A stretch of DNA of 64,000 nucleotides, from the IMG/VR virus record IMGVR_UViG_3300045988_007243; one strand, 5' to 3'. Below the pieces are notes generated by a model, which saw nothing but the letters and a program-made list of their open reading frames with translations, ran no database searches and was not told the DNA's origin. How positions within the stretch are numbered: the first letter of the stretch is position 1; each line of letters begins with the position of its first letter. Source of the DNA: a virus. Taxonomy: Duplodnaviria > Heunggongvirae > Uroviricota > Caudoviricetes. The translations under genes and the position numbers were made by a program. Shown in pieces: positions 5,215-46,933 of this stretch.

Positions 5215-5772
5215 GTGATAGATATGGAAAAAGATAACTTAAAAGAAGTTGAAGGTAACTACTTAGTACTTGACTGGAATGATATTCGTGGAGCACTCTA
5301 CGAAGAAAGCCTTAATAGGTTAGAACAAATTATCTTTGCAGTACGGGGTTACAGAGAGGTTCAAAATGGTAAAGAGCCACTTGAAGGAATCTTTGTAGAG
5401 AAGTCTTATCCGTTCTATGAAGACACTTTACAGAAAGTTAAAATGTACTTTAGACAGAAGAACCGTAAAGTGGTCACTATGGTATCTCTTGGTGGACAGA
5501 ATATGTCTGTGATGGAAGATATTAATCCTAAGAGACCGAGTAAAGGTATCTGTATAAAAATCACAGGACATGAAGAGTATATCTCAGTGGATGATTTTAG
5601 TTCATTCTGTAATGGCTCTTGTGTCTTTAATGGTTTTCACTATGATATCCGAGTGTACCCAATCAAGGGAGATGATATCATGATGCAGGTATTTGATAAC
5701 AACAACGGCTTTACTCATTTTTATCAGACAACCAAGTCATCACTAAAAACAGTTCTGGAAACACTGATTTAA
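5215..5772 (+). CDS. Hypothetical protein
   Basis: ORF, 185 aa; last gene of the plus-strand block. Confidence 0.5.
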   Translation: MIDMEKDNLKEVEGNYLVLDWNDIRGALYEESLNRLEQIIFAVRGYREVQNGKEPLEGIFVEKSYPFYEDTLQKVKMYFRQKNRKVVTMVSLGGQNMSVMEDINPKRPSKGICIKITGHEEYISVDDFSSFCNGSCVFNGFHYDIRVYPIKGDDIMMQVFDNNNGFTHFYQTTKSSLKTVLETLI

Positions 5773-5783
5773 AATATCTTAAG

Positions 5784-5808
5784 AGCCTCCTTAATTGGGG
5801 GCTTTTTT
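5784..5808 (+). terminator. Rho-independent terminator closing the plus-strand early operon
   Basis: AGCCTCC-TTAATT-GGGGGCT hairpin followed by TTTTTT. Confidence 0.65.
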
Positions 5809-5809
5809 A

Positions 5810-7436
5810 ATTTTTATAAAATTTTATCGGTTGTCCCAACCTCTGGGTCACCATCATATGTGAATAAAATATCTATCCTTCTTAGCAACCTTCTTAATCT
5901 TACTCTCTATATAGTTATATAGTACTATATAGTATCTTAGTAACTATCTAGTGGTCTTAATAGCCCTCTGTATAACCCTTCTAACAAGCCCTCTAACAAA
6001 CCTTCTTAACAACCTATACAATCACCTTAACCATCTCTCTACACCTTCTTAGAAGCCCCTATACACCTCTTAATCTCTATGTCAGCTATGATACCCTCTA
6101 TAGGTGTTCACTAGGAAATACTAAGCCTCTATATAGACTGTTTTAACAAACTTAACAGGAATATCTTTACAGACCTTATCTCACAAGGTCTAACACGGTA
6201 CTAACAAGGTATCTTATAAGCCTGTTTATGCCTGTATTTTTAAAAGACTGTATAGGTAATTATTCAGAATTTTAAAATTTTTATAAAATAGGACTATCAA
6301 GTCATTTTTTAGGGTCTTTGAAGGGACTCAAAAATATCTGATTAGGGTGTATATCTGCTTGGTAGCCCTTAACAGCTCCCTTACAAGTACTTTGCAAAAT
6401 TTTAAAATATCCTTAACAATCTCTTAACAGTTCTCACATCTTCTTAACAACTCTTCAAAGGTCTTAACAGATTCTTAACAGAACTAACAAGGCTGTAACA
6501 GTTTCTTAACAGTTGATACATAGGCTTTACAGAATCTTAACAGATGACTAATAAGAGCTAACAGGGATTGGTAGATGATTCGGATGAAGCATCCTCATAA
6601 CAATACCAATTAGTTAATTTTAAAGAGTTATTTTGTTAAGATAATTAACAAGTTTCTAACAAGTATTTAATCTTTTTAACAAGCTATTAACATGGTCACT
6701 ACTCTTTTCTTATCGTTCCCTCTCCCTCTTAGTGATTCTCTAAACATACCTCTTAAAAGCTCTCTATAGCTCTTTATAAGCCCTTTTAAGCCTCTTCCTA
6801 GTAATTACACCCCAACTGTACAGACACCTTTTTATAGAGCTTTACAGGAGCTTTTAAGGCTATGTCAAAGACTCTTACAAGGCTTTTACGTGGTTTTAAC
6901 AGAGATTTAACAAGGGGCTAACAAGTTGCTAACAAGTGCCTTAAAAGCATAACTATGTAGGGATTGTTAAGAATTTGTTAAGAAAATGTTAAGGGGGCTA
7001 GCATTTACGTAACTTTATAGCTTCTTTTACGTAACTTTGAAGCAACTTTATAGCCCCTATAACATACTTTTAAGACACTAACAATAGGATTCGATAGATT
7101 CCTATCTCATAGCCCTTTTTAGTAGTTCACAAGAATACTAACGAGATAATAAAGCTTATAACCTTATAAGATTCTTTTAAGCCTCTATAAAGCCCTGTAA
7201 AGAGCTTTTTAGGGTGAGTTAATGCAATCCCTTAAGTTATATTGATAAGGCTGTTATAGAGCTTTATAGAGCGTTTTAGTGGTTGCCCTTCCCTTTCGGG
7301 TTATGGGCTTATATTTAAGTTGATTTGATAAGAGGTTATAGAGTAAACTATAGAGTTATTGCTTTTAAGGTATGGGATAGATTCTGGAAAGGAAAGGGAA
7401 AGGATTGTATAGGGATTCGATAAGACGTAAAAAAGC
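5810..7436. repeat. ORF-free G-poor region with dense short iterons (CTTAACAG/CTAACAAG, CTCTATAG/CTTTATAG, CTTTTAAG families)
   Basis: No ORF of 60 aa or more in any frame over about 1.6 kb between convergent transcription units; more than 30 TAACA(A/G) words, locally phased about 10-11 bp (6400-6560); TTTACGTAACTTT twice near 7000. Confidence 0.6.
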
Positions 7437-7491
7437 CCCTATGAGAAGGAGCTTTGAAGGTATCTGGGGCTATTTAGCCCCGTTGCGTCGA
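7437..7491 (-). terminator. Terminator region at the end of the minus-strand early array
   Basis: GGGGCTAAATAGCCCC hairpin and a GGGGC followed by a U-run on the minus strand, just past the stop of 7492..7740. Confidence 0.45.
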
Positions 7492-7740
7492 TTAGTTGTA
7501 ACCTTGTTTATTGTAGTACAGTGAGATAATCAAGTCACCCCAGTAATGATAGTGATGCTCGTCGTTTAATGCCTCTTTTACAGCGTCTTTCCAGAAGTCA
7601 TCAGTAGGGTTATAATCTGGGATAACTTGCTTGATAACTGTCTTCACTAATGAAAAACACTCATCAGTTCCACCAATATCAAATTTAACGTCCAGAGTAT
7701 AACAGCCATAAGCATTGACAGTTGCGCGGATAGTTGCCAT
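7492..7740 (-). CDS. Hypothetical early protein
   Basis: ORF preceded by the conserved leader AACTAGGAGATTCAAAAATG. Confidence 0.55.
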   Translation of the reverse strand: MATIRATVNAYGCYTLDVKFDIGGTDECFSLVKTVIKQVIPDYNPTDDFWKDAVKEALNDEHHYHYWGDLIISLYYNKQGYN

Positions 7741-12983: not shown

Positions 12984-13769
12984 TTAGTTCTTTGCGTCTA
13001 AGAAGGTAAGTTCTGGTGAAGAGAAGATTAACTCAATATCCTCATCAGTTCTTGCATAGATATAAGCATCTGCATCACTGCCAAATGTTACTGCAATTCT
13101 GTGATTGCTCTTCGACAGGTGGGTAACTAGAGCGTTACTCAGAGACATCTTCTCAACCGGAGGGTTACTTTGATGTATCTTACCTTTTCTTCGTCTGAAG
13201 AGGGTAACTGCATCATTAGTGAACACTACTACACCTGCAAAGTATTCTGGTTCACAGTAGTTCTTCCAACCTGAGAGTAACTTGTGGTACATCTCTCCTT
13301 CATAGACATATAGATAAACATCTACACTCTTCATCACCTGATTGATGATAACTGTGACGGCTTGAGGGTCAAGTCCACCGATACCTGCACCAATCATAGG
13401 TAAACCAACTTTCTTCAACTGGTTAACTTCACAGTATCTGTTAAGCTGTTTCAAAGATGACTCTAAAGCACTGTATCGGGCATCTTTACCAGTATGAAGT
13501 TGGGTGTAAAGGTTAGCTATACGGCCTTGTTTTAAACGTGCTACAGAGAAATTACCTAGTAAATTTTCACAGGGTTTGTGACGAATGCCACCTGCAAACA
13601 GGTAAACTTCTGTGTCAGTATCATACACTTTTGGATAACGCTTAGAAATAGTTGCTGCAATACCTGCACCCATGAAATTCATACAGTTGCAACCATGACC
13701 AATGATATCAAATTTGCCTTTATCAAATGCGTCAAAGATATCACCTTTGATGATTTTTACAATACCCAT
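12984..13769 (-). CDS. Macro domain protein (TARG1/DarG-like ADP-ribose-processing domain) with extra C-terminal domain
   Basis: GDIFD...DIIGHGCNCMNFMGAGIA...VGLPMIGAGIGGLD matches the TARG1-type macro domain pattern (GDLF...CISEDCRMGAGIA...PRIGCGLDRL). Confidence 0.55.
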   Translation of the reverse strand: MGIVKIIKGDIFDAFDKGKFDIIGHGCNCMNFMGAGIAATISKRYPKVYDTDTEVYLFAGGIRHKPCENLLGNFSVARLKQGRIANLYTQLHTGKDARYSALESSLKQLNRYCEVNQLKKVGLPMIGAGIGGLDPQAVTVIINQVMKSVDVYLYVYEGEMYHKLLSGWKNYCEPEYFAGVVVFTNDAVTLFRRRKGKIHQSNPPVEKMSLSNALVTHLSKSNHRIAVTFGSDADAYIYARTDEDIELIFSSPELTFLDAKN

Positions 13770-17139: not shown

Positions 17140-18249
17140 TTAGATTTCACGTTTACGTTGAGAGATGAGTTCACCAGCAGTGCCAACGATGACATGCAAA
17201 GCTTCAGTCTTACCGTCCCATGCTTCCAGCACTTTACGTTGATTATCAACGATTGCTGCAACTTCATAACGAGAGGAACGCATCTTCATATCGTTGTAAT
17301 CAGTTGGAACAGATACAACATCTCGTGGATGGACACGAACCTTCAGGATTGTATCACCTGAGAAGCAACGAACATAATCCCAAGCACCAACATGAAGACC
17401 TTGAGAGCAAGTTACGTTACGGTTATTATCAACCATCCAACGTGGCATTTCTACAATGTTACCCAAATCATTAGGCACTTTGTAGGTGTGAGAGTCAACC
17501 AGCTTGCCTTCACGAGTAGAGACTTTCTTCCAACCAATGATGTAGCCTTCTTCATCAATTTCAACATCAAGGTGAGATACAAATCCCCAAAGTTGTTCTA
17601 CAGAATCTTTAGATGGGTTTTCCATCAGTTTTTCGAAGAACATCACAAGGCGTTCGAAACCTTTATCTCCAGTCTTCATCATGTGAAGAATACGGTCAAC
17701 CAGAGTAGAACGCATCTCAACAGCACCGTAGAATAACTTGTCACCTTTGATTGTGATAGCTCCCTGCGTGAAGTTTTCGATAGACTTACGAATGTTCATC
17801 AGTTCAAAGGCTTTCTTGAACTCACCTTTCACAACATGAACTACAATCTCTTGATAGTTCGGATGAGTAGACTCAACAATTTCAGATTCTGAACCGTAAG
17901 TCATAATTACAGAGTCGCCAGTAATCATGTACTCAATCTTGTCATCTTTCTGCATAGCTTCGTGCAGTTTATTTACTGGAGCTTTCTGTACAGAATCTTT
18001 AACAACCTTTTTAACTGGCTTGTCAGCTTTCTTTTTAAAGGTCTTAGCAACTTGCTTCAAAGTCTTCGTAGCTGGTGTAGAAGTCGCCTTTTTATTCCCT
18101 TTTAAGGTTGCTTCATGACGCTCTACAGCACGACCGACTGAACGGGTTGAGGTATTAAATTTCTGTGCAATAGCTGTTTTAGTCAGCTTGCCCTCTTTAA
18201 CCAGTTTGTAAATTTCTGCGTCAATCTGTGCTTTAGTTTTGGTAGTCAT
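17140..18249 (-). CDS. rIIB: rIIB-like protein
   Basis: 369-aa protein immediately downstream of an rIIA-like gene, basic Lys-rich N-terminal region; assignment by synteny and general resemblance. Confidence 0.4.
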   Translation of the reverse strand: MTTKTKAQIDAEIYKLVKEGKLTKTAIAQKFNTSTRSVGRAVERHEATLKGNKKATSTPATKTLKQVAKTFKKKADKPVKKVVKDSVQKAPVNKLHEAMQKDDKIEYMITGDSVIMTYGSESEIVESTHPNYQEIVVHVVKGEFKKAFELMNIRKSIENFTQGAITIKGDKLFYGAVEMRSTLVDRILHMMKTGDKGFERLVMFFEKLMENPSKDSVEQLWGFVSHLDVEIDEEGYIIGWKKVSTREGKLVDSHTYKVPNDLGNIVEMPRWMVDNNRNVTCSQGLHVGAWDYVRCFSGDTILKVRVHPRDVVSVPTDYNDMKMRSSRYEVAAIVDNQRKVLEAWDGKTEALHVIVGTAGELISQRKREI

Positions 18250-18293
18250 CTTATTACTCTCTCTTGTTAGTTAATAAATCATTTTGTGATGCT

Positions 18294-18323
18294 ATTCTAA
18301 GGGGCTTTGAAGCCCCTTGTCAA
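18294..18323 (-). promoter_or_regulatory. Promoter TTGACA-N17/18-TAGAAT with GGGGCTTCAAAGCCCC hairpin in the spacer
   Basis: Read on the minus strand between rIIA stop and rIIB start. Confidence 0.45.
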
Positions 18324-18328
18324 ACACT

Positions 18329-20695
18329 TTAATCGTAAATTGTAGTCCCTTCTGGAACACACTTCACATCAAAGCCTAAGAACTTACCCACTTCGATAGG
18401 TGACACTTTATTCCAATCTAAATGAGAAAGCAAGAAGTTTTCTTGTTTTCTTTTTGAAAGGTAGTTTGTCACCTTAATGACCATGCGGTCACCAGCTTTC
18501 TTAATTTTCTTGTAAAGCTTTGTATCATTGTCAAGGCATTCTTTCAAAGTTTGCAATCTACTAACAGTGTAAGTGTATGCAAACGGTGCAGCAACGTATT
18601 GGATTTTACCGAACATTGCCTCTACAGCCTCTTCATTACCTTCTAGGAAGATAGTTTTGTTTGTATCCAGTGAATAGCAATAACCACGAGAAATCTTCCT
18701 ATTATTGAATGTAAAGTTTCTGGCAATAATCCAGCTACTTGTAAGGTCAAGAACACCATCCATGTAGATGCGTGTCATATACCTGTTATGATTAATCCAA
18801 TGAACATCAGTTAAGCTGTCATTCAAGAGCTTCTCATCTACTTCAATCCAGTCTTCTGGTATCTTTTTCCAATTTGCTTTTCGGAAAACATAGACTGTCT
18901 TTCCAATAACATTAGCAACTGACTTAGCTACATCTTCTGGGGATGAGCAAAAACATCTACCATCAACTGTGTCGCCTACTGCCTTGATATAAAGCTGAGA
19001 CTCTTCAATTGTGTCTAAGTCCTCTGACACCTCTTTGTAGGAGGCTACACCTTCTGCTGGAACAGCTTTCCAGAGTTTTACAACACCTCTTACAGCTTCT
19101 TTACGCTGGTAATGGTGTTCCTTATCAGACATTTTCACAATCTTTAACAAGCTTTTATCAAGTTTGTGCAGATTGATTAAGTCATCTAACTCTTTTTCAG
19201 TCGAGAATACAAAGACAATACCATTGTATCTGTGAAACAGACTAGACTCACTTGCATAGTCTCGACATGCACCACGCAAGATTTGGTTACGCCCAACAGT
19301 CTTCTCAGTGCCATTTTTATTTCGACGGTCATTAATCACGAACAAAAACTGTCCAATCTGGCTTTTGCGCATTGCACCAAAGATGTTGAACATGCTCGCC
19401 TCTTGAGTGTAGGATAGTGCTGTTGCACGAATCTTACTCTCTAAAGAGTTAAACTTGACATAAGCAACTGGGTCATAAAGATAATCTACTTTAGGGATAT
19501 TGTTCCCGTTCCTATCAACCTTAATATTACCTTTACCGTCACGTTCGTAAATGACTGAGCCGTCTTCTGCGTAGATAATTCCACGACGAATGTTTAGCAA
19601 TTCTTCTTCCAGAGAATCAAGCTTAACACCTCCCCACTCTAGCTTTGGACACACAGCATTAAACATCTCTCGTGAGTTCAAACGTAACTCAGCATAAGCC
19701 TGTGCAGCATCCATGAGTGTAGGTTGACTATTAACTTTCTTGATAACATCCTTTGTAATCGCTTCAGTTATCTTTTTAGTAGCCTCAATGATAACATTTT
19801 TTGTCGTATCATTCATCTGCAATGCTTCACGAGAAGCTGCAATAGCAACTGAACCAATAGGCATGTAGATGTTTACAAGGTCTACGCTCCTACGGAAAAA
19901 CTCTGGCAAGACTTTGAAGAAATCATCACCAAGTAATGCTTCCATGTTCACTGGATAGGCAATATTACCCATCACCACATTAAACTCTGTCCTGTTACCA
20001 CTAGAACGCCAGCTTTGCTTATGAATCATGGCATCATAAACACCTTCTTCACGGGCAATGACGTTCATATCTGCTAATACATCGTCGTACTCAATATTAC
20101 TTTCTGGTTTTACAGTGAAGTATGAGTACACATTTCCAGCTTCTTCAAAGAACTTTGAGATACGGTGGTCAGCAACTGCCACACGTACAGCTAAACCATT
20201 AGGTTCTTTTGTTGGGTTAGTTGTCAGCTTAGTTACTTGAGGGATACCATTCTCAAGATAAACAGAGTACTTATTAACAACACCGTCAACATAGCTAGAT
20301 ACTGTGAATGACTGAGCAATTGCAAATGGTGACTTTGAGCCGATACCCATTGCACCAATGTAGTCATTAGAGTCATTCTTCGTAGAAGCTCCATAGTTTA
20401 GGTACAAACTCATAACTTTATCATGAGTCAATCCAGTTCCAAAATCACGAACTTCAAAGTAAGGCTCAAAACGAGTAGGTAAATGCACATGGAACGGGAT
20501 GTTCTCTTTTCCAGCTTCTTTCTGAGCATCTACTGCGTTACATGACAGTTCACGAATCACTGCCCTTTCTTTAAAGGTATACACACCAGAACTCAAAAGG
20601 CTGAACATCTCAGGTGTCATTGTAATCTGTGCTTGAGACGTCTCTAAAGAAGTTGAACTCTTAATCACTTCTGCGTGGTCATTTACCATGCGCAT
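18329..20695 (-). CDS. rIIA: rIIA-like protein with N-terminal GHKL (histidine-kinase-like) ATPase fold
   Basis: N-box ELSCNAVDA, G1 box DFGTGL, G2 box GAMGIGSKS; 788 aa. Confidence 0.6.
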   Translation of the reverse strand: MRMVNDHAEVIKSSTSLETSQAQITMTPEMFSLLSSGVYTFKERAVIRELSCNAVDAQKEAGKENIPFHVHLPTRFEPYFEVRDFGTGLTHDKVMSLYLNYGASTKNDSNDYIGAMGIGSKSPFAIAQSFTVSSYVDGVVNKYSVYLENGIPQVTKLTTNPTKEPNGLAVRVAVADHRISKFFEEAGNVYSYFTVKPESNIEYDDVLADMNVIAREEGVYDAMIHKQSWRSSGNRTEFNVVMGNIAYPVNMEALLGDDFFKVLPEFFRRSVDLVNIYMPIGSVAIAASREALQMNDTTKNVIIEATKKITEAITKDVIKKVNSQPTLMDAAQAYAELRLNSREMFNAVCPKLEWGGVKLDSLEEELLNIRRGIIYAEDGSVIYERDGKGNIKVDRNGNNIPKVDYLYDPVAYVKFNSLESKIRATALSYTQEASMFNIFGAMRKSQIGQFLFVINDRRNKNGTEKTVGRNQILRGACRDYASESSLFHRYNGIVFVFSTEKELDDLINLHKLDKSLLKIVKMSDKEHHYQRKEAVRGVVKLWKAVPAEGVASYKEVSEDLDTIEESQLYIKAVGDTVDGRCFCSSPEDVAKSVANVIGKTVYVFRKANWKKIPEDWIEVDEKLLNDSLTDVHWINHNRYMTRIYMDGVLDLTSSWIIARNFTFNNRKISRGYCYSLDTNKTIFLEGNEEAVEAMFGKIQYVAAPFAYTYTVSRLQTLKECLDNDTKLYKKIKKAGDRMVIKVTNYLSKRKQENFLLSHLDWNKVSPIEVGKFLGFDVKCVPEGTTIYD

Positions 20696-21230: not shown

Positions 21231-21257
21231 AATTAAAAAGGCTCCCGTAGGAGCCTC
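21231..21257 (-). terminator. Rho-independent terminator after the NAMPT-like gene
   Basis: GAGGCTCCTACGGGAGCC hairpin followed by UUUUUAAUU on the minus strand. Confidence 0.6.
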
Positions 21258-21270
21258 TTATCATATACTT

Positions 21271-23052
21271 TTAAAGCTGCTTGTCAATATTATTTCGAAT
21301 ATCACCAAGAGTTGTGTAACCGAACTGCTCAGAGTCACTAAAGACTAAACGTAAAGCACAAGCTGGGTGGTCAAGTACATCTGCAAAACTCTGGAATCCA
21401 TAGCCATCTACAGCTTTCAGCTTATCACCATCCCACATAGGTGCTACACCACCAAAGGCAGATTTCTTAACACCACTATCTGTTTTAGGGTCTTTTGCAA
21501 GCATAATCTCTTTACCACCAATGCTTGCCAGAGTTGCTTTGACAGCAAATGCAAAGGTGTCACGAGTCATGTACTGGTAAGTGTAAGAACCTACACCAAA
21601 CACTACGTTAGAGCTTGCAAAACCCATTTCATACAAACGCTTCAGTATTTCGTTTGCACGTTCCAACGTGATAGAGTCGCCATAAATAAGCCCGATATGC
21701 TCATCCAGTACTTTAAAACCTTTAGAGTTGATAGTTCCCCCAAAGATGTTATACAGTGTCTTGATAGCTCCATCAATCTCCGCTACAGGACGTGTTACAA
21801 CGTTTGCAGAACCAACCATATAAGCATTTTTCAACAGCACTGTATCAGCAACTTCAAAGTCTTCTCTGTCAACAACCATTTCGTAGCCTTCTGACAGTAG
21901 CCATCCAGCAATACCATAGTTGATGTTTTCAAGCTTCATGTTCAGAACAGCATTCAACATTGTGTCGCTGGCTTCCAGCTTGCTTAAGTGTTCGTAATAA
22001 GCCTTTTTAGCACACTCTAAATGGATTGCTTTGTATCCTGTGACAATATGTACAGGGTCTCCAGAGTCAGGGCGAATTACCAGTTTACCATCACGTTCCA
22101 TAATTTCTTTACGGAGTGCTGGTAAGATTTCTGACACAGTTCTCCAGAAGTTATAAGTATCTGAAACAATACTTGCAATACCAGTTGGGTAAGTTTCTGT
22201 TAAGAAACGACGGAAGGTTTGTAACTCACCTTTAAAGCGTCTTTCTTCTTCAATCAACTCATTACCACCTTCCCAAGCAATGTTTGCACACATTACAGAG
22301 TGCTCAGTGGCTGGTACAGAACTACCAATATCAGAGATTAGGTAAGACTGACCATAGATTCGTTTAGCCGTGTATACAGCAGGGAAACTATCAGTTCCTT
22401 TAAAGCTGGTTAAGTGACCTACAGCATTAAATGCGTCATCAGTAAAGCCGGACATACCACGCATAGCAAAGTCATGGCACTGATAAGGCAAATGTAAGTC
22501 GTTGTCACAAGTAAGGTCAGACCACTTCTTACAGATACGTTTGTAGTGCAATGCAATAGTTGCAATGGTACAAGCCTTCCAAATCTCAGCAGAGAAAGCA
22601 TCTTCCAGATATCCCGCTACCCAATGGAAACCTGAAACAGTGTTCTGGAAGACAATCATTGGTACACGCATAGGAACAACTGTGCCTTCTTCTACAGCGT
22701 AGACTTCAACTGGTAGATAACCTAAGTCGTGGAGTGCTTCCCAATGTTCTCGACCAATAGCATCTTTGCCCAGAACACCGTTCATGATTTCTAAGATTTC
22801 GTCAATTGCTTCTTTTTTGTCACGTTCAAAGAAAGTGGCGTTCCAGTGGTCTATCAAGTAATCTTTAACGAAACGTTGAATACCAAAAGCTACTACACCA
22901 TCAATTGCTAAAGGGCTGTTAAACCATTTATCGCTACGTGGTGTCAGGTTCAGCATAAGGTACTGTGTGGCATCTGGATACTGATATATATGTGATGCCT
23001 TGTAAGCATCTGCGTTTAAACCTGCTGGTACTGCATAAAGTGATTTAGTCAT
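21271..23052 (-). CDS. nadV: Nicotinamide phosphoribosyltransferase family protein (NadV/NAMPT-like; possible Namat of a NARP1-type pathway)
   Basis: N-terminal ADAYKASHIYQYP matches the NAMPT DSYK.THY.QYP motif; length 593 aa; adjacent to a Prs-family gene. Confidence 0.75.
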   Translation of the reverse strand: MTKSLYAVPAGLNADAYKASHIYQYPDATQYLMLNLTPRSDKWFNSPLAIDGVVAFGIQRFVKDYLIDHWNATFFERDKKEAIDEILEIMNGVLGKDAIGREHWEALHDLGYLPVEVYAVEEGTVVPMRVPMIVFQNTVSGFHWVAGYLEDAFSAEIWKACTIATIALHYKRICKKWSDLTCDNDLHLPYQCHDFAMRGMSGFTDDAFNAVGHLTSFKGTDSFPAVYTAKRIYGQSYLISDIGSSVPATEHSVMCANIAWEGGNELIEEERRFKGELQTFRRFLTETYPTGIASIVSDTYNFWRTVSEILPALRKEIMERDGKLVIRPDSGDPVHIVTGYKAIHLECAKKAYYEHLSKLEASDTMLNAVLNMKLENINYGIAGWLLSEGYEMVVDREDFEVADTVLLKNAYMVGSANVVTRPVAEIDGAIKTLYNIFGGTINSKGFKVLDEHIGLIYGDSITLERANEILKRLYEMGFASSNVVFGVGSYTYQYMTRDTFAFAVKATLASIGGKEIMLAKDPKTDSGVKKSAFGGVAPMWDGDKLKAVDGYGFQSFADVLDHPACALRLVFSDSEQFGYTTLGDIRNNIDKQL

Positions 23053-23097
23053 CTTTTAATATCTCTCAAAATGGGGCTTTTAAGCCCCTATAAACTT

Positions 23098-23979
23098 TCA
23101 ATCAAGGTTTGCTACAGTAACTTGGCCGTAATGTGTTAAGCCACGGTCTTTAGCTTCACCTAAAGAGTTTGTAGTGTAAATATGGTCGATACCATTGTCA
23201 AGAAGGTTTTCAACATCTTTAGAGAAGATACCATGTGTTACATAAAGCTCCACACGTTTTGCACCTGCTTCACGTAGGTGTTTAGCTGCCTCTATGAAGG
23301 TTCGACCACCATCACAGATATCATCCAGAATCATGACGGTTTTATCTGCCAAATCAACATCATCAAGGATTCGCATACCAGTAATTTCACCAGTCTTAAG
23401 GTTACGTACTTTAGACATTGTGATGTATGGTTTATCCACCTCTTTAGCAGTCTCTGCAATCTTCTTAGAAGCACCTGCATCTGGGGCTACTAAATAATCA
23501 ATCAAAGGGTCATTCGCATAGTGGACTGCAATTTCCTTTTGAGGAATACTTTGGAAGCAGTTAAACAGGTTATCTGGAACGTAACTGTGAGGGTCAACTG
23601 CACAGACTGCACCAAATCCCATTGCATTTACCTGTTTAGCAAAAACCTTTAAAGCTGCTGCGTCGCCTTTAAACATGTGACGGTCATAACGTGCATTTGG
23701 TAAGTAGTAAAAGATGACAGTCTTTAAAGCATAATCATGAGGAATTAAATCATCAATTGCTTCTTTAGCAAGTGCCACAGCAAACAATGTATCCTTATCA
23801 TAACCTTTTACAATCATAATCACATTGTTGATGGATGATGCTGCATAAGCAGTGAAATCAACAAACTCTGGCGAAAAGTGTCCACCAATCTCACCAGAAG
23901 GAAATTGGATGATGTTAAACTCTTCTTCATGAGTCCCTTTAGTTGGTGAATGAACTGTAACACGGATAGATGTTTTCAT
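23098..23979 (-). CDS. prs: Ribose-phosphate pyrophosphokinase family protein (Prs-like; possible Adps of a NARP1-type pathway)
   Basis: VIFYYLPNARYDRH (like VIPYFGYARQDRR), LVAPDAGASKK, MILDDICDGGRTF...GAKRVELYVTHGIFS (like VLVDDMIDTGGTL...GAKRVFAYATHPIFS); start moved to the ATG after the upstream stop. Confidence 0.7.
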   Translation of the reverse strand: MKTSIRVTVHSPTKGTHEEEFNIIQFPSGEIGGHFSPEFVDFTAYAASSINNVIMIVKGYDKDTLFAVALAKEAIDDLIPHDYALKTVIFYYLPNARYDRHMFKGDAAALKVFAKQVNAMGFGAVCAVDPHSYVPDNLFNCFQSIPQKEIAVHYANDPLIDYLVAPDAGASKKIAETAKEVDKPYITMSKVRNLKTGEITGMRILDDVDLADKTVMILDDICDGGRTFIEAAKHLREAGAKRVELYVTHGIFSKDVENLLDNGIDHIYTTNSLGEAKDRGLTHYGQVTVANLD

Positions 23980-23990
23980 AGTTTTCTCTC

Positions 23991-24269
23991 TCAATCAAAG
24001 GTTATGTTTGTTACTGCCATTGCAGATTTGCATTTTGCAGGGTCTACAACGTGATAAAGTACACTACAGTTACCTGTGCTGTCTGGTACAGGTTTGACCC
24101 ATTGATGCTTTATAGTTGGCTCTCCTAAATCTTTGTAAGAGCCATCTGTAAAATTGTTTACCATCTCAAGTGCAATTGGTTCTGGGACATGACCACGTAT
24201 CATGTACATCTCACAGCCGTTACCACCTTCACTCACTAATGGTAGAATCTCCCACTTTTCTTTAGCCAT
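23991..24269 (-). CDS. Hypothetical protein
   Basis: ORF, 92 aa. Confidence 0.45.
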   Translation of the reverse strand: MAKEKWEILPLVSEGGNGCEMYMIRGHVPEPIALEMVNNFTDGSYKDLGEPTIKHQWVKPVPDSTGNCSVLYHVVDPAKCKSAMAVTNITFD

Positions 24270-24777
24270 TATAAGTTGCCCTATAAACTGTCTCGAACTT
24301 CAACAGGAGAGATATTGCCAAATCTGTATAGTTGTTGTCAAGCACATCTGGCATATTATTTTTGATATATTTCTCTTGCTCTTCATAGGTCATCTTGGGG
24401 ATACTTAGGAGGCTATCTCCTTGCTTCTGGTTATCAGTTTTAGTTTGGATAAACCAGTTTGCACAGTGATGTTCACCACCTTTTGTAACAGGTTTGTGAT
24501 GACCTAATGTAAATGTTTGCTTACCCGTATACCTGCAAAGATTGTTCAGTGTTGCAATGGTGTTCTTCACAACACACCATTCATACAGGTTATCTATTGT
24601 GTAGTGTGGGTAATAACGGACAAGTGCTCTTTCACGGAAGTTATCACGATTCCAAAGAACCATGTGATTAGAATTTGAAGGGTCATATTTGTGGGAGTCT
24701 ATAAACTCTTGACGCTCATCAAAGCTGAGTCTTAGAACTGACATTGCAGCAGAACGTTTTAGGTTTGACAGATACAT
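24262..24777 (-). CDS. HNH endonuclease candidate
   Basis: GHHKPVTKGGEHHCANW resembles the HH.P...GG....N HNH core. Confidence 0.4.
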   Translation of the reverse strand: MYLSNLKRSAAMSVLRLSFDERQEFIDSHKYDPSNSNHMVLWNRDNFRERALVRYYPHYTIDNLYEWCVVKNTIATLNNLCRYTGKQTFTLGHHKPVTKGGEHHCANWFIQTKTDNQKQGDSLLSIPKMTYEEQEKYIKNNMPDVLDNNYTDLAISLLLKFETVYRATYNG

Positions 24778-24827
24778 ATCATCTCCAAAATAAAAGGGAA
24801 CCTTTACAGTCCCCTTATAGTATCTGC

Positions 24828-26793: not shown

Positions 26794-27351
26794 TTATTTT
26801 TTCTTACAATTGTCAAAATGATATCGAGTCATGTTACCAGCACCACCAGTCATACCACAATGAGGGCAAGTTTTCTTTTTCTTTGGCTTTTTTCCGGCTT
26901 CTGACATCTTCTTCCTTGTTTCTATAGACCTTTTACAACCTTTTGATTTTGTATTGCCTATTTGAGATTCTCCTAATCGTCTTCGATGTTCTTCAGTGAA
27001 AACCCTACCTTTATTCACAATAGATAAAGCTTTCGAGTTCAAAGCTCTTACCTTTTCATAGTCTCTGGATGATATTTTCCTATCTAGGCCATCATGAGCT
27101 AACCTGTTCCATGCAAACCATAACTTATGATTGTTTGGATACATCTTAACCAGTAATTTATGAGCTATATAATGCTCTCTAGGTGTAAGCAAAGCAATAT
27201 TATCTCCACTAATTTTATCTCCACCTAGACATACTGGTATGATATGGTGTCTTTCATAACCCTTACCTTGACATTTGTAGTATGTAAGAGGCACACCCCT
27301 TTCAGAATGTGCCTTCTTAATAATTGCATTATATATTAGTTCGTAATTCAT
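26794..27351 (-). CDS. Free-standing HNH homing endonuclease with NUMOD3-like repeats
   Basis: YERHHIIPVCLGGDKISGDNIALLTPREHYIAH HNH core; C-terminal FTEEHRRRLGESQIGNTKSKG repeat and basic zinc-finger tail; sits immediately downstream of nrdD. Confidence 0.65.
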   Translation of the reverse strand: MNYELIYNAIIKKAHSERGVPLTYYKCQGKGYERHHIIPVCLGGDKISGDNIALLTPREHYIAHKLLVKMYPNNHKLWFAWNRLAHDGLDRKISSRDYEKVRALNSKALSIVNKGRVFTEEHRRRLGESQIGNTKSKGCKRSIETRKKMSEAGKKPKKKKTCPHCGMTGGAGNMTRYHFDNCKKK

Positions 27352-27358
27352 TTGTATG

Positions 27359-28306
27359 CTACATAGAAACCCTATCCTTAATTTCTGCCATCTTAGCGTC
27401 ATTCATTCGAGACTGACCTTTAATTTTTGTGAATGACAAGTACCCGCACACCCTGTTAATCACAGAGATATCATGTGAATGGCAAACCTCACATTCTTCA
27501 ACATCAGCCTTTGGTCTGTTACCACAATGTTCACAGATTGCTAAGTCAAAGTTAAGCCCTTGATAAAAACCTTTCAACATCCCTCTTGTAATACAACTTT
27601 TAAGTGCTGGTAAGTTTTCTGGGTTAGCTACCCTTACATACTGGATTCTGCCACCTCTACAGATATGGAAGAATGGCTCTTCTAATTCCTGCTTCTCAAA
27701 TGGTGAGATGTTTGCTGCAACATTCATATGGAAACTGTTTGTAAAGTATTCCTTGTCAGAAACGCCTTTAATAACACCAAACATATCTCTGAACTGTTTT
27801 AGCTGAGTTCCACACAATGACTCTGCTGGAGTGCCATATACTGCATACAGGAAGCCATCTTCATTCTTAAACTCTTCAGTTTTCATGTTAATGTATGCCA
27901 GAACATCGTATGCAAAACTGGAACTTCCAACTTCATGAAGTCGTTTACCTTCAGCAAGAACAGATAACTCATCAAGAGCAGTAACCCCAAAAGAAGCTGT
28001 GAAGGACTTCACAATATCCCAACCAACCTTGTCAGTAGGCTTCTTAGTCCCTTTATACAGACCACCTTGTGTGAATGCAAGAGGGTTAGAACTTGCTGGC
28101 ATATTGGCAATCATTTCGTAACGTTTCTTATGGAAGCTGCGAATCATTTCTAGGTACTTATCAAGCTCTTTCCAGAAATCTAAACCATTCTCTTTAGAAT
28201 ACTGGTAAATCATTGGTAAGTTCAAAGATACAGCACCAATGTTAGCACGACCTACATAAAACTCTTCACCATATTCGTTATGGTATGGTGATAAAAATGC
28301 TCTACA
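27359..28306 (-). CDS. nrdD: Anaerobic ribonucleoside-triphosphate reductase, exon 2
   Basis: In-frame continuation CRAFLSPYHNEYGEEFYVGRANIGAVSLNLP... matches NrdD (E. coli PMGCRSFL...GVVSLNLPRIA); C-terminal CEHCG...CEVCHSHD...RVCGYLS glycyl-radical region. Confidence 0.8.
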   Translation of the reverse strand, partial: CRAFLSPYHNEYGEEFYVGRANIGAVSLNLPMIYQYSKENGLDFWKELDKYLEMIRSFHKKRYEMIANMPASSNPLAFTQGGLYKGTKKPTDKVGWDIVKSFTASFGVTALDELSVLAEGKRLHEVGSSSFAYDVLAYINMKTEEFKNEDGFLYAVYGTPAESLCGTQLKQFRDMFGVIKGVSDKEYFTNSFHMNVAANISPFEKQELEEPFFHICRGGRIQYVRVANPENLPALKSCITRGMLKGFYQGLNFDLAICEHCGNRPKADVEECEVCHSHDISVINRVCGYLSFTKIKGQSRMNDAKMAEIKDRVSM

Positions 28307-29048
28307 CTTGTTGTTCAGGTAAGTTCGCTAAGCTTACCCCGCTTTATTCAAGCTGCTTACTGTCGCCAGTAAGTCCAGACTATATCTTCTACTTATTTCT
28401 AAGTAGCGTACCATTTCGAGTCGCTTGACCCTACACCGCTACATTCATCACGGTTAGTCGTTCGGCATTTAGATGTATTCAAACTCATATTCGAAGTTAT
28501 TATGCTCTTTTACACCCTTCAATATTGAAGAGATGGTCTTGCGATTGTGTCCAAGTATATTGGATAACTCTCGTATTGACTTAGTAACAATAACTTCCTT
28601 TGTCACTTTGTGTGTGGCTTTCACGGCATATGAACGCTTGTGGAACTTGTAGCACCCGTTCTCATAACCTTCTTTAGCATTCTCAGAATGAGTACCCCAT
28701 TCTAAGTTGGATGCGTGGTTATTTAGTTTGTTATCGTCCTTATGTTTTACAATTGGAAGATTATTTGGGTTAGGTACATATTTCTCAGCAACTAACCTGT
28801 GGACATACATGTCACGATTCTTCTTACCGTAAAACCTCACTTTCATATACCCAGTGTTGGATTTCCACTGCGTAAGCTCTACACCATTTTCCCTAAAGAC
28901 TTTTCCATCTTCAGTGACGTGATAGTTTGGCATGTAAGACTCCTATGTTGTATAGTTTCTTACATCGTACATCATTTAGCACAGGATTGTCTACATCTGT
29001 AGAGTTTCCCTGTTTAGGCACGTTTTAGATGAGCTATAGAGCCTGTTA
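28307..29048 (-). other. Group I intron (td-like core) interrupting nrdD
   Basis: Minus-strand sense begins UAACAGGC...CCUAAACAGGGAAACUCUACAGAUGUAGACAAUCCUGUGCUAAAUG and ends ...GUAGGGUCAAGCGACUCGAAAUG...AGAUAUAGUCUGG...GGGGUAAGCUUAGCGAACUUACCUGAACAACAAG, closely matching recalled T4 td intron core elements; exon 1 ends with U, intron ends with G. Confidence 0.75.
28469..28933 (-). CDS. Intron-encoded HNH homing endonuclease
   Basis: MPNYHVTEDGKVF...SNTGYMKVRF...HRLVAEKYVPNP...NLEWGTHSEN pattern typical of HNH_3-family intron endonucleases; lies wholly within the nrdD intron with its own AGGAG RBS. Confidence 0.7.
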   Translation of the reverse strand: MPNYHVTEDGKVFRENGVELTQWKSNTGYMKVRFYGKKNRDMYVHRLVAEKYVPNPNNLPIVKHKDDNKLNNHASNLEWGTHSENAKEGYENGCYKFHKRSYAVKATHKVTKEVIVTKSIRELSNILGHNRKTISSILKGVKEHNNFEYEFEYI

Positions 29049-30245
29049 ACCCATCGGCGAAATAACCTTGCCAGAACGCTCAAAAGCCTCTGCTACAGCA
29101 CCATGACCAGATACACTTAAGAAATCTGGATACATAGCTTTAGAGCAACACTCAATAGCTTTACTGTACAGGTGACCTTGACAGATATTTTCATCATGTC
29201 TCTTCTGGTCATAAATATAAACCAGTTTAGGGAATACAACAGGCTTCTTACTCTTACCTTGTCCATTCATGCGAACATCAAGAATGGTGTTTGCAATCAT
29301 GTATTGCAGTCGGTTGTCTTCATTAGACATATCTGAGTCGAGCAACCCAAATGTTAAAGTTGTGAATGCGAAATCACCACGGCTGCAAGGTACAGTGTTC
29401 AGTTTCATTTCAAGTGACTGAAAACCTTGAGTTAATTCAATCTGTAGCTGCTCCATGACATAATTATGGTAATGTTCTTTAGGAATACCATAAGATGCTG
29501 CTTTCTCAGCATGATAGCGTAGAGACTTCTTAGCATACGGTACAAGCACCTTATCAATCTCTGCTAAAGTAAATCCACCAAATTGCTGTGCAGTTGCTGA
29601 AAGAACTACATCACCAATAACCTGTAAGGCTGACAGCACAGACTTCGGTTCACAGTATTCGATGCCAGACATCTCAAAGCCACCTTTCAGTACTTTACCA
29701 ATGTCAAACAAGCAACAGTTAATGCCGCCAAAAATCAGGTCTCTTAAATCGTGGATATAGATAAACCCTTTTTCAATGGCTTCAAGTTCCTCTGGTGTTA
29801 AATGGTACTGCTTAAAGATTTCTTTAGTCAGGTAACCACGAATAATTGAACCTTTTGTAGAAATTAAACTGCTGTCAAAGTTAGCGTTTTCACGGTCACC
29901 TAAGAAGAGCGTGTCTCTAGTCTTTTGGTAAAGCTCATCCCAATTTTGAGCAACCTCTTTCCGGTAATTTCTGTATGTTGAGTAAGACTCATAAATCTCG
30001 TGATTGACTTCTGCCAAAGCACCCTCAACAATGCTGTGAATATCATTGACTGAGATGAGTAAATTATTCTGCTTAGTGGACTTTACCAGAATCCTCATAA
30101 ATGCTGACTCAAGAGCTTGGGTAACATCTGGTGGGAGTTCTTTATATCCAACCCTGTTAGCTGACTTAGTTACTGCTGCTAAAACTTTTTTGATATCAGG
30201 TTCTTCAAGTGAGCCATTCTTTTTAATAATCTGTACTTTGTTCAT
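29049..30245 (-). CDS. nrdD: Anaerobic ribonucleoside-triphosphate reductase, exon 1
   Basis: N-terminal NrdD region ending ...VISPMG; the track stop codon (29046-29048) is the first triplet of the intron. Confidence 0.8.
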
Positions 30246-43174: not shown

Positions 43175-43431
43175 GTAAGCCTCTTTTAAGTAACTATTAA
43201 GTTTTAATCTTTTATCTTAACGTATTCTATACGTTATACTTTAAAGCTTTTTAAAAGCTATTAAATAATCTTTTAAGAGTTTTAAAGTATCTGTATAGTT
43301 AAACTGTTAAGTAACCTTTTAAGTAAAAACCCACTTCGCAAAGATTAACACCTTGTCAAGTACATTGTCAACTTGCTTTTTATAATTTTTTGCAGTAATG
43401 TATGAGGTTAATGATTTTAGAGGGAGTAAAA
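43175..43431. promoter_or_regulatory. Divergent intergenic control region (promoters for the DNA polymerase and the leftward operon)
   Basis: AT-rich, TTGTCA and TATAAT hexamers near 43350-43385, SD AGGGAG before ATG 43432; contains CTTTTAAG/CTGTTAAG words like the 5810-7436 region. Confidence 0.4.
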
Positions 43432-45574: not shown

Positions 45575-46376
45575 CAGTGGCGCATGTAAAACGTTGTGAA
45601 TTGCTGGAAGCCTAAGTCTGTAAAGATATGGTAATCAGCAGCGAAGTCTCCGTTAGGACTCCTAAAACAAAGGAGAGAGACAATGGCAGGTTACGAAGAG
45701 AGATTATGCACTGAGTGTGGTACGGAGTTTAAACCATATCAATACAATCAGAAACGGTGCAGAAGTTGTGTATTAAAGTTTGACAGAAGGGCAGAACACA
45801 GGGTTCTTACTAAGAAATGCCCTAGTTGTGAGAAGGTGTTCATGCCGAGAACAGCAAGGCAAGTTTATTGTTCGTCACATTGCGGTGAGAAAGGTAGAGT
45901 TAAGAATTACTACCTAAGAACATATGGATTGGAAAGAGAAGAGGTTGAGTCTCTACTCCGTGACTGTGATTACAAATGTCAAATTTGTGGCGGCGAAGGT
46001 TTTATCATGAATGGTTCACGACACAAGGCTAAACTTGTTGTTGACCATGACCATAAAACCGGAAAGGTAAGAGGTATGTTATGCCACAATTGCAACAGAG
46101 CTTTGGGGTTGCTTGCAGATAGTGTTGATAACATGCAAAGAGCGATTGACTATCTAAGCAAATGATATAACTATAGAGATTCCTAACAGAGAAACGTTCA
46201 GAGACTATCGAAAAGCATACTTAACGTATGAACTGAGTAGAGTAGGGTGGTAAGCTAATGACCATCCCCAAGTGCAACGGTAGCATCACTGCTACGTGAT
46301 ATAGTCCGACACTCCGTAGAAATGCGGAGAAGTTCATAAGAGAACTGGTACACCTTGCGAGTGTATTGACCAGATG
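45575..46376 (+). other. Intron (group I-like) interrupting the DNA polymerase gene in motif B
   Basis: Frame breaks after IYA and resumes as LFGAGDEK; 3' region has R-like GUUCAGAGACUA and S-like GAUAUAGUCCGAC elements; exon 1 ends in U, intron ends in G; boundaries approximate (two alternative 5' sites six nt apart). Confidence 0.6.
45683..46165 (+). CDS. Intron-encoded HNH endonuclease
   Basis: Zinc-ribbon N-terminus (CTECG...CRSC...CPSC...CSSHC) and HNH core LVVDHDHKTGKVRGMLCHNCNRALG. Confidence 0.7.
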   Translation: MAGYEERLCTECGTEFKPYQYNQKRCRSCVLKFDRRAEHRVLTKKCPSCEKVFMPRTARQVYCSSHCGEKGRVKNYYLRTYGLEREEVESLLRDCDYKCQICGGEGFIMNGSRHKAKLVVDHDHKTGKVRGMLCHNCNRALGLLADSVDNMQRAIDYLSK

Positions 46377-46933
46377 TATTGTTCGGGGCTGGCGATGAGA
46401 AATTTGCTAAGACGATTAAAGCATCTACAACTGAGGAAGGTGCTTTAACTAAGCAAACATACTTTGTACGTCTCCCTAAAATTAAGAAGTTGATAGATAA
46501 TTTAGAAGCAGACTTCAAAGCCACTAAGAAGGCTCTTGAAGAGGTATTTGGTAAGACTGCCGCAATCTCTAAAGGGGGGTTTGTAAAGGTTGCTGGAGCT
46601 TGGTTGTGGTGTAAATCTCCACATAAGTTATTGAATTATTTGCTTATGGGTTCGGAAAGTCAGGTTCAGAATGAAGCCATCAACCTCGCTTGTAGAAGAA
46701 CTTGTGAAGAGGGTCTTACAAAGTTGAATGGTCGAAAACCAGCTATTGGTGCTAGATTGCTTTTAGCATATCACGATGAGAATAGTTGGGAGTGTCCAGA
46801 AGACATGACGCAGGATGTTAAAGCAGTAATTGACTGGATGTATGGTCAAGCGTCAAGAAATTTAGGGCTTAAGGAGGAAACGCTTGTAACTGGTACTGGT
46901 AAAGTTGGTAAAAATTGGCTTGAAGTACACTGA
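46377..46933 (+). CDS. DNA polymerase, family A T7-like, exon 2 (C-terminal palm/fingers)
   Basis: LFGAGDEKFAKTI..., SPHKLLNYLL, YHDENSWEC, GTGKVGKNWLEVH align with the T7 gp5 C-terminus (YGAGDEKIG, SPHAALNTLL, VHDEIQVGC, EGKMGPNWAICH). Confidence 0.75.

Follow-up and report, generated by a model that had tools for sequence, protein, structure and literature searches.

Do the adjacent Prs-like and Nampt-like genes of this phage serve conventional NAD salvage, or do they rebuild NAD+ that host defences have consumed? An earlier note on this DNA had proposed the second answer and described the pair as a candidate module of the NARP1 (NAD+ reconstitution pathway 1) type. The window analysed here, a stretch of 64,000 nucleotides, is a segment of a Felixounavirus genome and colinear with the Escherichia phage Bas63 (JohannRWettstein) at 14.3-77.8 kb. 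NARP1 was first discovered in genes 79-80 of Bas63 (Osterman et al., bioRxiv 10.1101/2024.02.11.579819). Judged by sequence comparison, the two genes of the window are very probably a NARP1 operon of a Felixounavirus. The NARP1 reading of the earlier note is supported, but the module is not new, as the system has already been published in the same genus. The literature of 2024-2026 covers NARP1, and the window adds a member in the genus of its discovery. What is less charted is limited to a distal Macro-domain protein, a folded insertion in Namat and a divergent Adps allele.

In the proposed mechanism, some host defences (for example SIR2-HerA, DSR1/2, Thoeris type I, SEFIR) split NAD+ into ADP-ribose and nicotinamide. 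With pyrophosphate taken from ATP, Adps would then convert ADP-ribose at its 1'' position into ADPR-pyrophosphate (ADPR-PP), and Namat would combine ADPR-PP and nicotinamide directly into NAD+. For this step, Namat would rely on Nampt-type chemistry and on an adenine-binding clamp that prefers ADPR-PP to PRPP. Bas63 without genes 79-80 is sensitive to SIR2-HerA. In an independent knockout screen, the efficiency with which the phage plates on Sir2-HerA cells falls by 1e4-1e6 when either g79 or g80 alone is deleted, and complementation restores the plating of the deletion phages. Metabolomics provides evidence for the NARP1 reactions in Bas63-infected cells. The Bas63 Adps 'did not purify well', and the biochemistry was therefore done with the proteins of the Bacillus phage SPbetaL1, which in vitro convert ADPR and ATP to ADPR-PP, and ADPR-PP and nicotinamide to NAD+. 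By analogy with this published work on Bas63 and SPbetaL1, the window pair would carry out both enzymatic reactions and have the anti-defence phenotype. The analogy spans some distance, as the SPbetaL1 proteins are only 35-47% identical to those of the window, and the Adps allele of the window differs from that of Bas63. The NARP1 pair should allow a phage to evade SIR2-HerA, DSR1/2, Thoeris type I and SEFIR.

The gene pair and its relation to Bas63

The coordinates reported before, 21271..23052 for an ORF of 593 aa and 23098..23994 for an ORF of 298 aa, both on the minus strand, matched exactly, and all motifs that had been quoted for the products, namely NADAYKASHIYQYP, LDDICDGGRTF and GAKRVELYVTHGIFS, were found. 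On the minus strand, the Namat-like gene is indeed downstream of the Prs-like gene, and adps precedes namat. The start of adps was refined to the ATG at 23979, which is preceded by GAGAGAGAAAAC and is the same as the annotated start of Bas63 gp79; the alternative start at 23994, which would give 298 aa, is a TTG. In Pfam, the 593-aa protein matches NAPRTase and NAMPT_N, and the Prs-family protein matches Pribosyltran and Pribosyl_synth. The two genes are co-oriented and separated by a gap of 45 nt, and they are adjacent in the sense in which adjacency defines NARP1. The features of the region are collected in the table.

Features of the gene pair, of its surroundings and of the distal Macro-domain gene
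Feature	Position	Strand	Remark
adps, putative ADP-ribose pyrophosphokinase (Prs-family)	23098..23979	-	293 aa from ATG; orthologous to Bas63 gp79
namat, putative nicotinamide ADP-ribose transferase (Nampt-family)	21271..23052	-	593 aa; orthologous to Bas63 gp80
Codons of the Namat selectivity-clamp helix motif GSYTYQYMTRD (aa 488-498)	21559..21591	-	match to published consensus
Codons of the Namat selectivity-clamp loop (aa 37-52, TPRSDKWFNSPLAIDG)	22897..22944	-	identical to Bas63 in the part compared
Codons of the Namat insertion subdomain (aa ~340-427)	21772..22035	-	alignment gaps
Macro-domain protein, 261 aa, candidate accessory gene	12984..13769	-	ortholog of Bas63 gp95 'putative phosphatase'
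Intercistronic hairpin GGGGCT-TAAA-AGCCCC	23073..23088	-	inside the adps-namat spacer 23053..23097
Terminator-like hairpin directly past the namat stop codon	21236..21259	-	pattern match
Strong sigma70-like site, 11/12 matches, overlapping the 21236..21259 hairpin	21287..21260		would serve the next genes
Upstream terminator-like hairpin	24794..24816	-	pattern match

The window and Bas63 share the genus, the gene order, the flanking genes and the stem of the spacer hairpin, and, over the stretches compared, also the clamp loop and the helix motif of Namat. The Namat protein is 98% identical (579/593) to Bas63 gp80, and the products of the flanking genes are 89-98% identical to Bas63 gp77, gp78, gp82 and gp83. 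Adps is only 78% identical (229/293) to Bas63 gp79. The difference is concentrated in the first 180 residues (68% identity), whereas the remainder is 95% identical. At the nucleotide level, the 5' two-thirds of adps diverge, with 65-82% identity compared to more than 90% in the flanks. The window allele of adps is the commoner one among Felixounaviruses. In Bas63, namat is moreover followed directly by an additional gene for a 114-aa protein, gp81, which is missing from the window.

Adps and Namat compared with Prs and Nampt

Adps and Namat share folds and catalytic cores with E. coli Prs, H. ducreyi NadV (9ke8) and human NAMPT. The earlier note had suggested that profile HMMs or structures could separate Adps from bona fide Prs, and Namat from NAMPT. 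For Adps, the profiles did so. The window protein passes only the broad NCBIfam subfamily model TIGR01251 (120.6 bits, cut-off 113) and stays below every Prs equivalog cut-off (90-102 bits against about 296-297), just as the proven SPbetaL1 Adps fails with 74-81 bits. With the model PRK01259, E. coli Prs scores 533 bits and the window Adps 90 bits. Pairwise comparisons point the same way. Adps is 35% identical to the SPbetaL1 and Thalassa Adps and 29% identical to E. coli Prs, and its alignment scores are 244-301 with two proven or operon-linked Adps proteins and 161 with E. coli Prs. The window Adps thus appears to belong to the phage Adps clade, apart from cellular Prs. In alignments, its Lys190 (in SKVR) coincides with the K-x-R motif found in both SPbetaL1 Adps and an archaeal Prs, and is the counterpart of the catalytic Lys162 of SPbetaL1 Adps, which is equivalent to K197 of B. 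subtilis Prs. A search by sequence for a solved Adps structure returned Prs entries only, and NCBIfam release 20, Pfam and PHROGs hold no curated HMM specific for Adps or Namat.

For Namat, sequence and fold rank the Namat structures first, but the 'nicotinate phosphoribosyltransferase' equivalog NF006629, which the window protein passes, cannot discriminate, because the proven SPbetaL1 Namat passes it too. In a PDB sequence search, the SPbetaL1 Namat structures 9w5w/9w5x (PMC12774641) were the best matches (E ~3e-128), well ahead of human NAMPT (~1e-39). They are also the best fold match of the AF2 model of the window protein (pLDDT 92.5), with a TM-score of 0.95 normalised on the target. The Nampt-like catalytic core is intact, with F195, R198, D221, the ATEHSVMCA segment that bears the catalytic His, R327, D329, G458-D459 and G488-S489 all retained. 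Twenty NAD+-contacting residues from the SPbetaL1 crystal structure could be mapped, and all are identical or conservatively replaced in the window protein (R40 by K42 followed by W43, S190A, A362S and F392Y).

The selectivity clamp distinguishes Namat from NadV and Nampt, which lack its two aromatic residues. The helix motif GSYTYQYMTRD fits the consensus GS-X-phi-X-phi-X-phi-TRD, with the aromatic residues Y490 and Y494 at motif positions 3 and 7. The corresponding segments are GAQTYQRNTRD in the bona fide NadV of H. ducreyi, with Q and R at the two aromatic positions, and GGALLQKVDRD in a Xanthomonas Nampt, with A and K. The clamp loop of Namat contributes the residue that stacks on adenine, which is either an Arg at position 3 or the stacking residue after a Lys or Tyr. 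In the loop of the window protein, TPRSDK42-W43, Lys42 is followed by Trp43, so that the sequence provides a residue for adenine stacking. Bas63 Namat is the described case of a Lys at loop position 3 with the next residue stacking on adenine, and the loop of the window Namat would stack in the same manner.

The window thus has the same two-enzyme architecture as SPbetaL1, and the NAD+ contacts and clamp motif of Namat are conserved between them, as is the catalytic Lys in Adps. The two systems differ in sequence (47% identity for Namat, 35% for Adps), in the clamp loop, where SPbetaL1 has Arg40 in place of Lys-Trp, and in the length of Namat. The SPbetaL1 protein, with 491 aa, lacks two insertions, one of about 70-90 aa and the other of about 11 aa. 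The larger insertion is also absent from Nampt structures. Homologues have between 19 and 97 aa in this region, and the AF2 model of the window protein shows helices and strands there (pLDDT 92-97). The insertion is not mentioned in the paper on the Namat structures (PMC12774641). It might provide a surface for regulation or interaction, which the crystallised SPbetaL1 enzyme does not have.

Alternative routes to NAD+ and the distal Macro-domain gene

The earlier note had said that such pairs are usually annotated as NAD salvage, and nearly all GenBank annotations do imply the classical pathway. There, the Prs-like enzyme would make PRPP, the Nampt-like enzyme would make NMN, and the host NadR or PncC/NadD/NadE would complete NAD+. 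Pfam, NCBIfam, PHROGs and all annotated relatives use the names Prs and NAPRTase/Nampt, and some flux of this kind is possible, since Namat retains an activity that forms NMN from PRPP in vitro. However, the SPbetaL1 homologue gave no product in a Prs assay, yet formed ADPR-PP from ADPR and ATP, and both the scores of the window Adps under all Prs equivalog cut-offs and the intact adenine clamp of Namat speak against classical salvage, which we consider very unlikely. A pathway of the NARP2 type, in which Nampt cooperates with a phage NMNAT, is hardly conceivable. In Vibrio phage KVP40, NARP2 consists of Nampt and a bifunctional Nmnat/Nudix protein. Like NARP1, it has a Nampt-family enzyme, to which the Namat family is homologous, and the purpose of restoring NAD+ during infection. 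In contrast to NARP1, it needs an NMNAT and PRPP, the substrate that KVP40 Nampt prefers. The earlier note had seen no NMN adenylyltransferase in the window, and Pfam scans bear this out. No CTP_transf_like or NUDIX domain was found among 62 window ORFs, which comprised non-structural genes from about 85 aa upwards (one of the two lists gave the best 25 of 36 families), nor in ten proteins of Bas63, nine of which are encoded beyond the segment that the window covers. NARP2 is also at odds with the Adps gene adjoining the Namat gene, and according to published work, NARP1 and NARP2 have never been found in one phage. NARP1 is favoured over NadV plus NMNAT because the adenine clamp is present, Adps scores like proven Adps and unlike true Prs, and an NMNAT was not found in the ORFs scanned; this last point had already been argued in the earlier note. 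More than 200 related GenBank records still read 'ribose-phosphate pyrophosphokinase / nicotinamide phosphoribosyltransferase', and would be better annotated as an anti-defence module.

A further question is whether this NARP1 is extended by a third gene. In the NARP1-AP of Vibrio phage Gary and Thalassavirus (Adps-Adpp-Namat; bioRxiv 10.64898/2026.01.28.702374), Adps and Namat are accompanied by a Macro protein. The window encodes homologous Adps and Namat, and a homologous Macro-domain protein. Its only Macro gene among the ORFs scanned (Pfam Macro, 30 bits, cut-off 22) encodes a Macro domain at the N-terminus and a beta-rich domain at the C-terminus. Four ORFs neighbouring NARP1 (58, 111, 92 and 171 aa) were scanned and contain no Macro domain, so that the gene does not lie within two genes of NARP1, the distance that defines NARP1-AP. 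It is possible, though unlikely, that NARP1-AP is split here and that the Macro protein acts in trans as an ADPR-1''-phosphate phosphatase like Adpp, feeding ADP-ribose to Adps and Namat. The protein belongs to phrog_335, as does the Macro gene that Vibrio phage Thalassa carries between adps and namat. It is 28-31% identical, along the full macro domain, to the biochemically validated Adpp of Gary (28%, E 7e-15) and to Thalassa gp184 (E 2e-17). It shares the motifs HxCNC...MGxGIA...N[LV]Y[TG]Q...PxIG[AC]G, and has the same profile of PDB similarities as the validated Adpp. The published screen covered only two genes on either side of NARP1 and would therefore have missed a split arrangement; those of its supplementary files that were searched contain none of the Escherichia, Salmonella, Shigella, Citrobacter and Erwinia phage names searched for. 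Against a split NARP1-AP, the Macro gene is about 7.5 kb, or roughly 15 genes, downstream of namat and outside the operon, and its product has an extra C-terminal domain of about 100 aa without counterpart in Adpp. Moreover, the Macro family occurs much more widely than NARP1, with 2998 records compared to 1394 with Adps. Among Escherichia phages, the numbers are 998 and 178, and the Macro set includes T-even phages. A de-ADP-ribosylating role of the protein, for example against DarT, is just as plausible, because TARG1, Poa1p and DarG match its fold about equally well.

The distinction matters for the range of defences. A phage with NARP1 should stay sensitive to aRES unless ADP-ribose is supplied from ADPR-1''-phosphate, and a split NARP1-AP would make the phage resistant also to the RES-type (aRES) phosphorolysis of NAD+. 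More doubtfully, Felixounaviruses may run an extended NARP1 across the genome, with the Macro protein turning ADPR-1''-phosphate or other modified forms of ADP-ribose (O-acetyl-ADPR, sirtuin-type) into ADP-ribose, which would widen the set of NAD+-attacking defences that the phage withstands. Only two leads merit a small experiment, the Macro gene outside the operon and the insertion in Namat.

Hairpins and promoter-like sites around the gene pair

The earlier note had placed a hairpin and no other gene between the two genes, and the 45-nt spacer does contain a hairpin and no ORF. The predicted folding energy of the spacer is about -11.5 to -12.6 kcal/mol. The hairpin is followed by the purine-rich ATTTTGAGAGA, which looks like a ribosome-binding site. 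A role as a terminator was rejected, as the T-run is too short for the criterion applied. Bas63, Henu12 and Maleficent have the stem unchanged, with variation confined to the loop; since the stem is identical in the four genomes, there is no covariation. In Kolesnikvirus Ea_Tu10, where the spacer is 13 nt long, and in SPbetaL1, where the genes abut, the hairpin is absent. It is a lineage-specific feature and outside the definition of NARP1. Scans of the whole window for tRNA genes and Rfam families returned no hits.

Judged by pattern matches, the two terminator-like hairpins at 24794..24816 and 21236..21259 bracket four genes, which encode proteins of 171 aa and 92 aa, Adps and Namat. This order recurs in Bas63, Henu12 and Maleficent. 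Outside the Ounavirinae, the 171-aa gene has no general linkage to NARP1, and in Phapecoctavirus-type phages it is tens of kb away from adps. Several weaker sigma70-like matches (9-10/12) are found in the region, with a modest enrichment of 59 found over 40 expected from shuffles.

The gene pair and its counterpart in Bas63

The earlier note proposed that an adjacent Prs-like and NAMPT-like gene pair encodes NARP1, the pathway that rebuilds NAD+ from ADP-ribose and nicotinamide, with Adps making ADPR-pyrophosphate and Namat making NAD+. ORF calls place two co-oriented genes at identical coordinates, the motifs quoted in the note are all found in the two proteins, and the 45-nt spacer contains the hairpin described and no ORF. 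Over its entire length, and in reverse orientation, the window runs colinear with positions 14.3-77.8 kb of the Felixounavirus JohannRWettstein (Bas63, MZ501086), an Escherichia phage. Since NARP1 was discovered in genes 79-80 of this very phage (bioRxiv 10.1101/2024.02.11.579819), the colinearity settles the NARP1 reading. Namat is 98% identical to Bas63 gp80 (579/593) and Adps 78% identical to gp79 (229/293), and the neighbours gp77, gp78, gp82, gp83 and rIIA are kept in unchanged order at 89-98% identity. As a typical member of a system that was published in 2024 and discovered in this genus, the module is already known. Residual interest lies in a distal Adpp-like Macro gene, an insertion in Namat, and a divergent, albeit commoner, Adps allele.

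Deletion of the Bas63 operon leads to SIR2-HerA sensitivity and deeper NAD+ loss, ADPR-pyrophosphate is seen only where the wild-type phage met the defence system, and both reactions have been demonstrated in vitro with homologues from the Bacillus phage SPbetaL1 (bioRxiv 10.1101/2024.02.11.579819). In an independent Bas63 knockout screen, single deletion of g79 or g80 lowers plating efficiency on Sir2-HerA cells by 1e4-1e6, and complementation rescues it.

A megablast search with the locus matches 258 phage records at up to 96% identity. In 228 of these, nearly all from Felix O1-like phages of Escherichia, Salmonella and Shigella, a single match spans at least 80% of the query. Compared with Bas63, a mosaic patch of 65-82% nucleotide identity covers the 5' two-thirds of adps (23427..24026, minus strand), between flanks of more than 90%; in the protein, identity is 68% over residues 1-180 and 95% over residues 181-293. 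Related phages fall into two adps allele groups: 155 records share at least 90% identity with the window, and 94 share 60-80%. The window belongs to the commoner group, and Bas63, the phage used in the experiments, to the rarer. Bas63 and some relatives also have an extra 114-aa gene, gp81, directly 3' of namat, which is missing from the window (indel at about 21220).

The adps start is likelier to be the ATG at 23979 than the TTG at 23994, because the purine-rich GAGAGAGAAAAC precedes the former and the resulting 293 aa agree with the annotated ortholog. The order of the 171-aa gene, the 92-aa gene, adps and namat, which together fill the block between two terminator-like hairpins, is kept in Bas63, Henu12 and Mooglevirus Maleficent. 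Across the same phages, the spacer hairpin differs in its loop alone, its stem being invariant. A Kolesnikvirus has a spacer of 13 nt that lacks the hairpin, and the SPbetaL1 genes adjoin directly; the hairpin thus characterises a lineage and does not belong to the definition of NARP1. A simple terminator criterion does not class it as a terminator, and a role as mRNA stabiliser or weak attenuator would be a guess.

Features of the NARP1 locus and its surroundings
Feature	Coordinates	Strand	Basis or remark
namat, 593 aa	21271..23052	minus	ORF call; Pfam NAPRTase and NAMPT_N
adps	23098..23994 (TTG, 298 aa); 23098..23979 (ATG, 293 aa)	minus	ORF call; Pfam Pribosyltran and Pribosyl_synth
Spacer hairpin GGGGCT-TAAA-AGCCCC	23073..23088	minus	spacer fold about -12 kcal/mol
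Terminator-like hairpin, 5' side of four-gene block	24816..24794	minus	pattern match
Terminator-like hairpin, 3' side of four-gene block	21259..21236	minus	pattern match
Large Namat insertion after RPDSGDP strand, aa ~340-427	21772..22035	minus	gap against SPbetaL1 Namat and all Nampt structures
Smaller Namat insertion, aa ~262-276		minus	gap against SPbetaL1 Namat and all Nampt structures
171-aa gene, ortholog of Bas63 gp77 (89.5% identity)	24262..24777	minus	ahead of adps
92-aa gene	23991..24269	minus	ahead of adps
rIIA (788 aa) and rIIB (369 aa)	17140..20695	minus	just downstream of NARP1
Macro-domain protein, 261 aa, ortholog of Bas63 gp95	12984..13769	minus	Pfam Macro, 30 bits against cut-off of 22

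Identity of the two enzymes

Namat is defined in a 2026 structural study by a Nampt-like catalytic core and an adenine "selectivity clamp" of a variable loop plus a helix, the latter with the consensus GS-X-phi-X-phi-X-phi-TRD and aromatics at motif positions 3 and 7 (PMC12774641). The window protein reads GSYTYQYMTRD, whereas the same alignment register holds GAQTYQRNTRD in the true NadV of Haemophilus ducreyi and GGALLQKVDRD in the Xanthomonas Nampt. Its clamp loop, TPRSDK-W, equals that of Bas63 over the stretch compared and represents the published case of a lysine followed by a stacking residue. Twenty NAD+-contacting residues were mapped from the SPbetaL1 Namat structure; each is either identical or a conservative replacement here, and the conserved ATEHSVMCA segment with the catalytic histidine is retained. 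Among solved structures, the Namat entries 9w5w/9w5x rank first by sequence (E ~3e-128), followed by H. ducreyi NadV (1e-105), the enzyme from Xanthomonas (4e-51) and human NAMPT (~1e-39). The order is unchanged when an AlphaFold2 model (pLDDT 92.5, pTM 0.91) is compared by fold, the TM-score on the Namat target being 0.95. The separation from NAMPT called for in the earlier note thus comes out on the Namat side.

The large insertion is modelled as a confidently folded helix-strand subdomain (pLDDT 92-97). The region is 19 to 97 aa long among homologues, all of which have the Namat-type motif, and the structural paper makes no mention of it (PMC12774641). Homologues of 496 aa with the motif GS[YF]TYQYNTRD, one cluster of which comprises 1229 sequences, are found on multi-megabase contigs of Klebsiella, Cronobacter, Erwinia, Kosakonia and Phytobacter; their location suggests that chromosomal or prophage NARP1 may exist in Enterobacteriaceae.

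For Adps, the curated libraries NCBIfam, Pfam and PHROGs hold no specific model, and a sequence search of solved structures finds no Adps. In the comparison with Prs profiles proposed in the note, the window protein scores 90-102 bits, far below the cut-offs of about 296-297, much like the biochemically proven SPbetaL1 Adps (74-81 bits); the PRK01259 score of E. coli Prs is 533 bits. The window protein is 35% identical to the SPbetaL1 and Thalassavirus Adps (alignment scores 244-301) against 29% for E. coli Prs (score 161), and its catalytic lysine is conserved as Lys190 of a K-x-R motif. In the published phylogeny, Adps is a phage-specific clade, with Namat adjoining 97% of the members.

The note had further argued from the lack of a visible NMNAT, the partner of Nampt in the NARP2 pathway. 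Pfam scans bear this out: no CTP_transf_like or NUDIX match is present in the 62 window ORFs (one of the two family lists giving the best 25 of 36), or in ten Bas63 proteins, nine of them from the genome part outside the window. In the original study, NARP1 and NARP2 do not co-occur in any phage. With Bas63 orthology and the membership of both enzymes, the NARP1 reading was right.

A distal Macro-domain gene

According to a January 2026 preprint, a RES-type defence (aRES) cleaves NAD+ to nicotinamide and ADPR-1''-phosphate, the latter of which NARP1 cannot use, and 15% of NARP1 operons include a Macro-domain phosphatase, Adpp, that restores ADP-ribose; the screen was limited to two genes on either side of NARP1 (bioRxiv 10.64898/2026.01.28.702374). 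No Macro gene is found beside the window pair, but one lies on the same strand 7.5 kb downstream.

A link of this protein to Adpp is suggested by its membership in phrog_335, to which the Macro gene that separates adps from namat in Vibrio phage Thalassa (preprint Table S1) also belongs. Its identity across the entire macro domain is 31% to the Thalassa protein (E 2e-17) and 28% to the biochemically validated Adpp of Vibrio phage Gary (E 7e-15). The link is also favoured by the absence of Escherichia, Salmonella, Shigella, Citrobacter and Erwinia phage names from the preprint's supplementary files, including Table S1 (bioRxiv 10.64898/2026.01.28.702374). However, the Macro family has twice the spread of Adps, with many members in T-even phages, the model (pLDDT 90.7) matches TARG1, Poa1p and DarG about equally well, a profile just as ambiguous for the validated Adpp itself, and the window protein carries an additional beta-rich C-terminal domain of ~100 aa for which no match was found. 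On balance, we treat the gene as a lead and consider a real extension of the pathway rather unlikely.

Surrounding genes

The 171-aa and 92-aa genes always precede adps in Ounavirinae. Bas63 gp77 reportedly acts against the Ec67 retron and is described as GIY-YIG; scans of its window ortholog give one weak match, of HNH type, in PHROGs and none in Pfam. For Bas63 rIIA and rIIB, activity against the qatABCD defence system has been reported, and NARP1 therefore lies within a stretch rich in anti-defence genes.

Elsewhere in the window, 5772..7492 is a 1.7 kb region without ORFs of at least 45 aa, tRNAs or Rfam matches, and Bas63 has the same gap. Its dense short CTTAACA(A/G) repeats, in both orientations and at 11- and 31-nt spacing, resemble a putative iteron-type origin or regulatory region. 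In nrdD (26794..30245, minus strand), an HNH_3 homing-endonuclease ORF (28469..28933) interrupts the gene, as in Bas63, and a NUMOD3-containing ORF (26794..27402) has no counterpart there; no group I intron model scores above the Rfam threshold in this region. In the family A DNA polymerase gene (43402..46933, plus strand), an insertion of ~800 bp with an Endonuclease VII-domain ORF (45683..46165) separates a 737-aa ORF from a C-terminal one of 184 aa, whereas the Bas63 gene is uninterrupted and encodes 909 aa.
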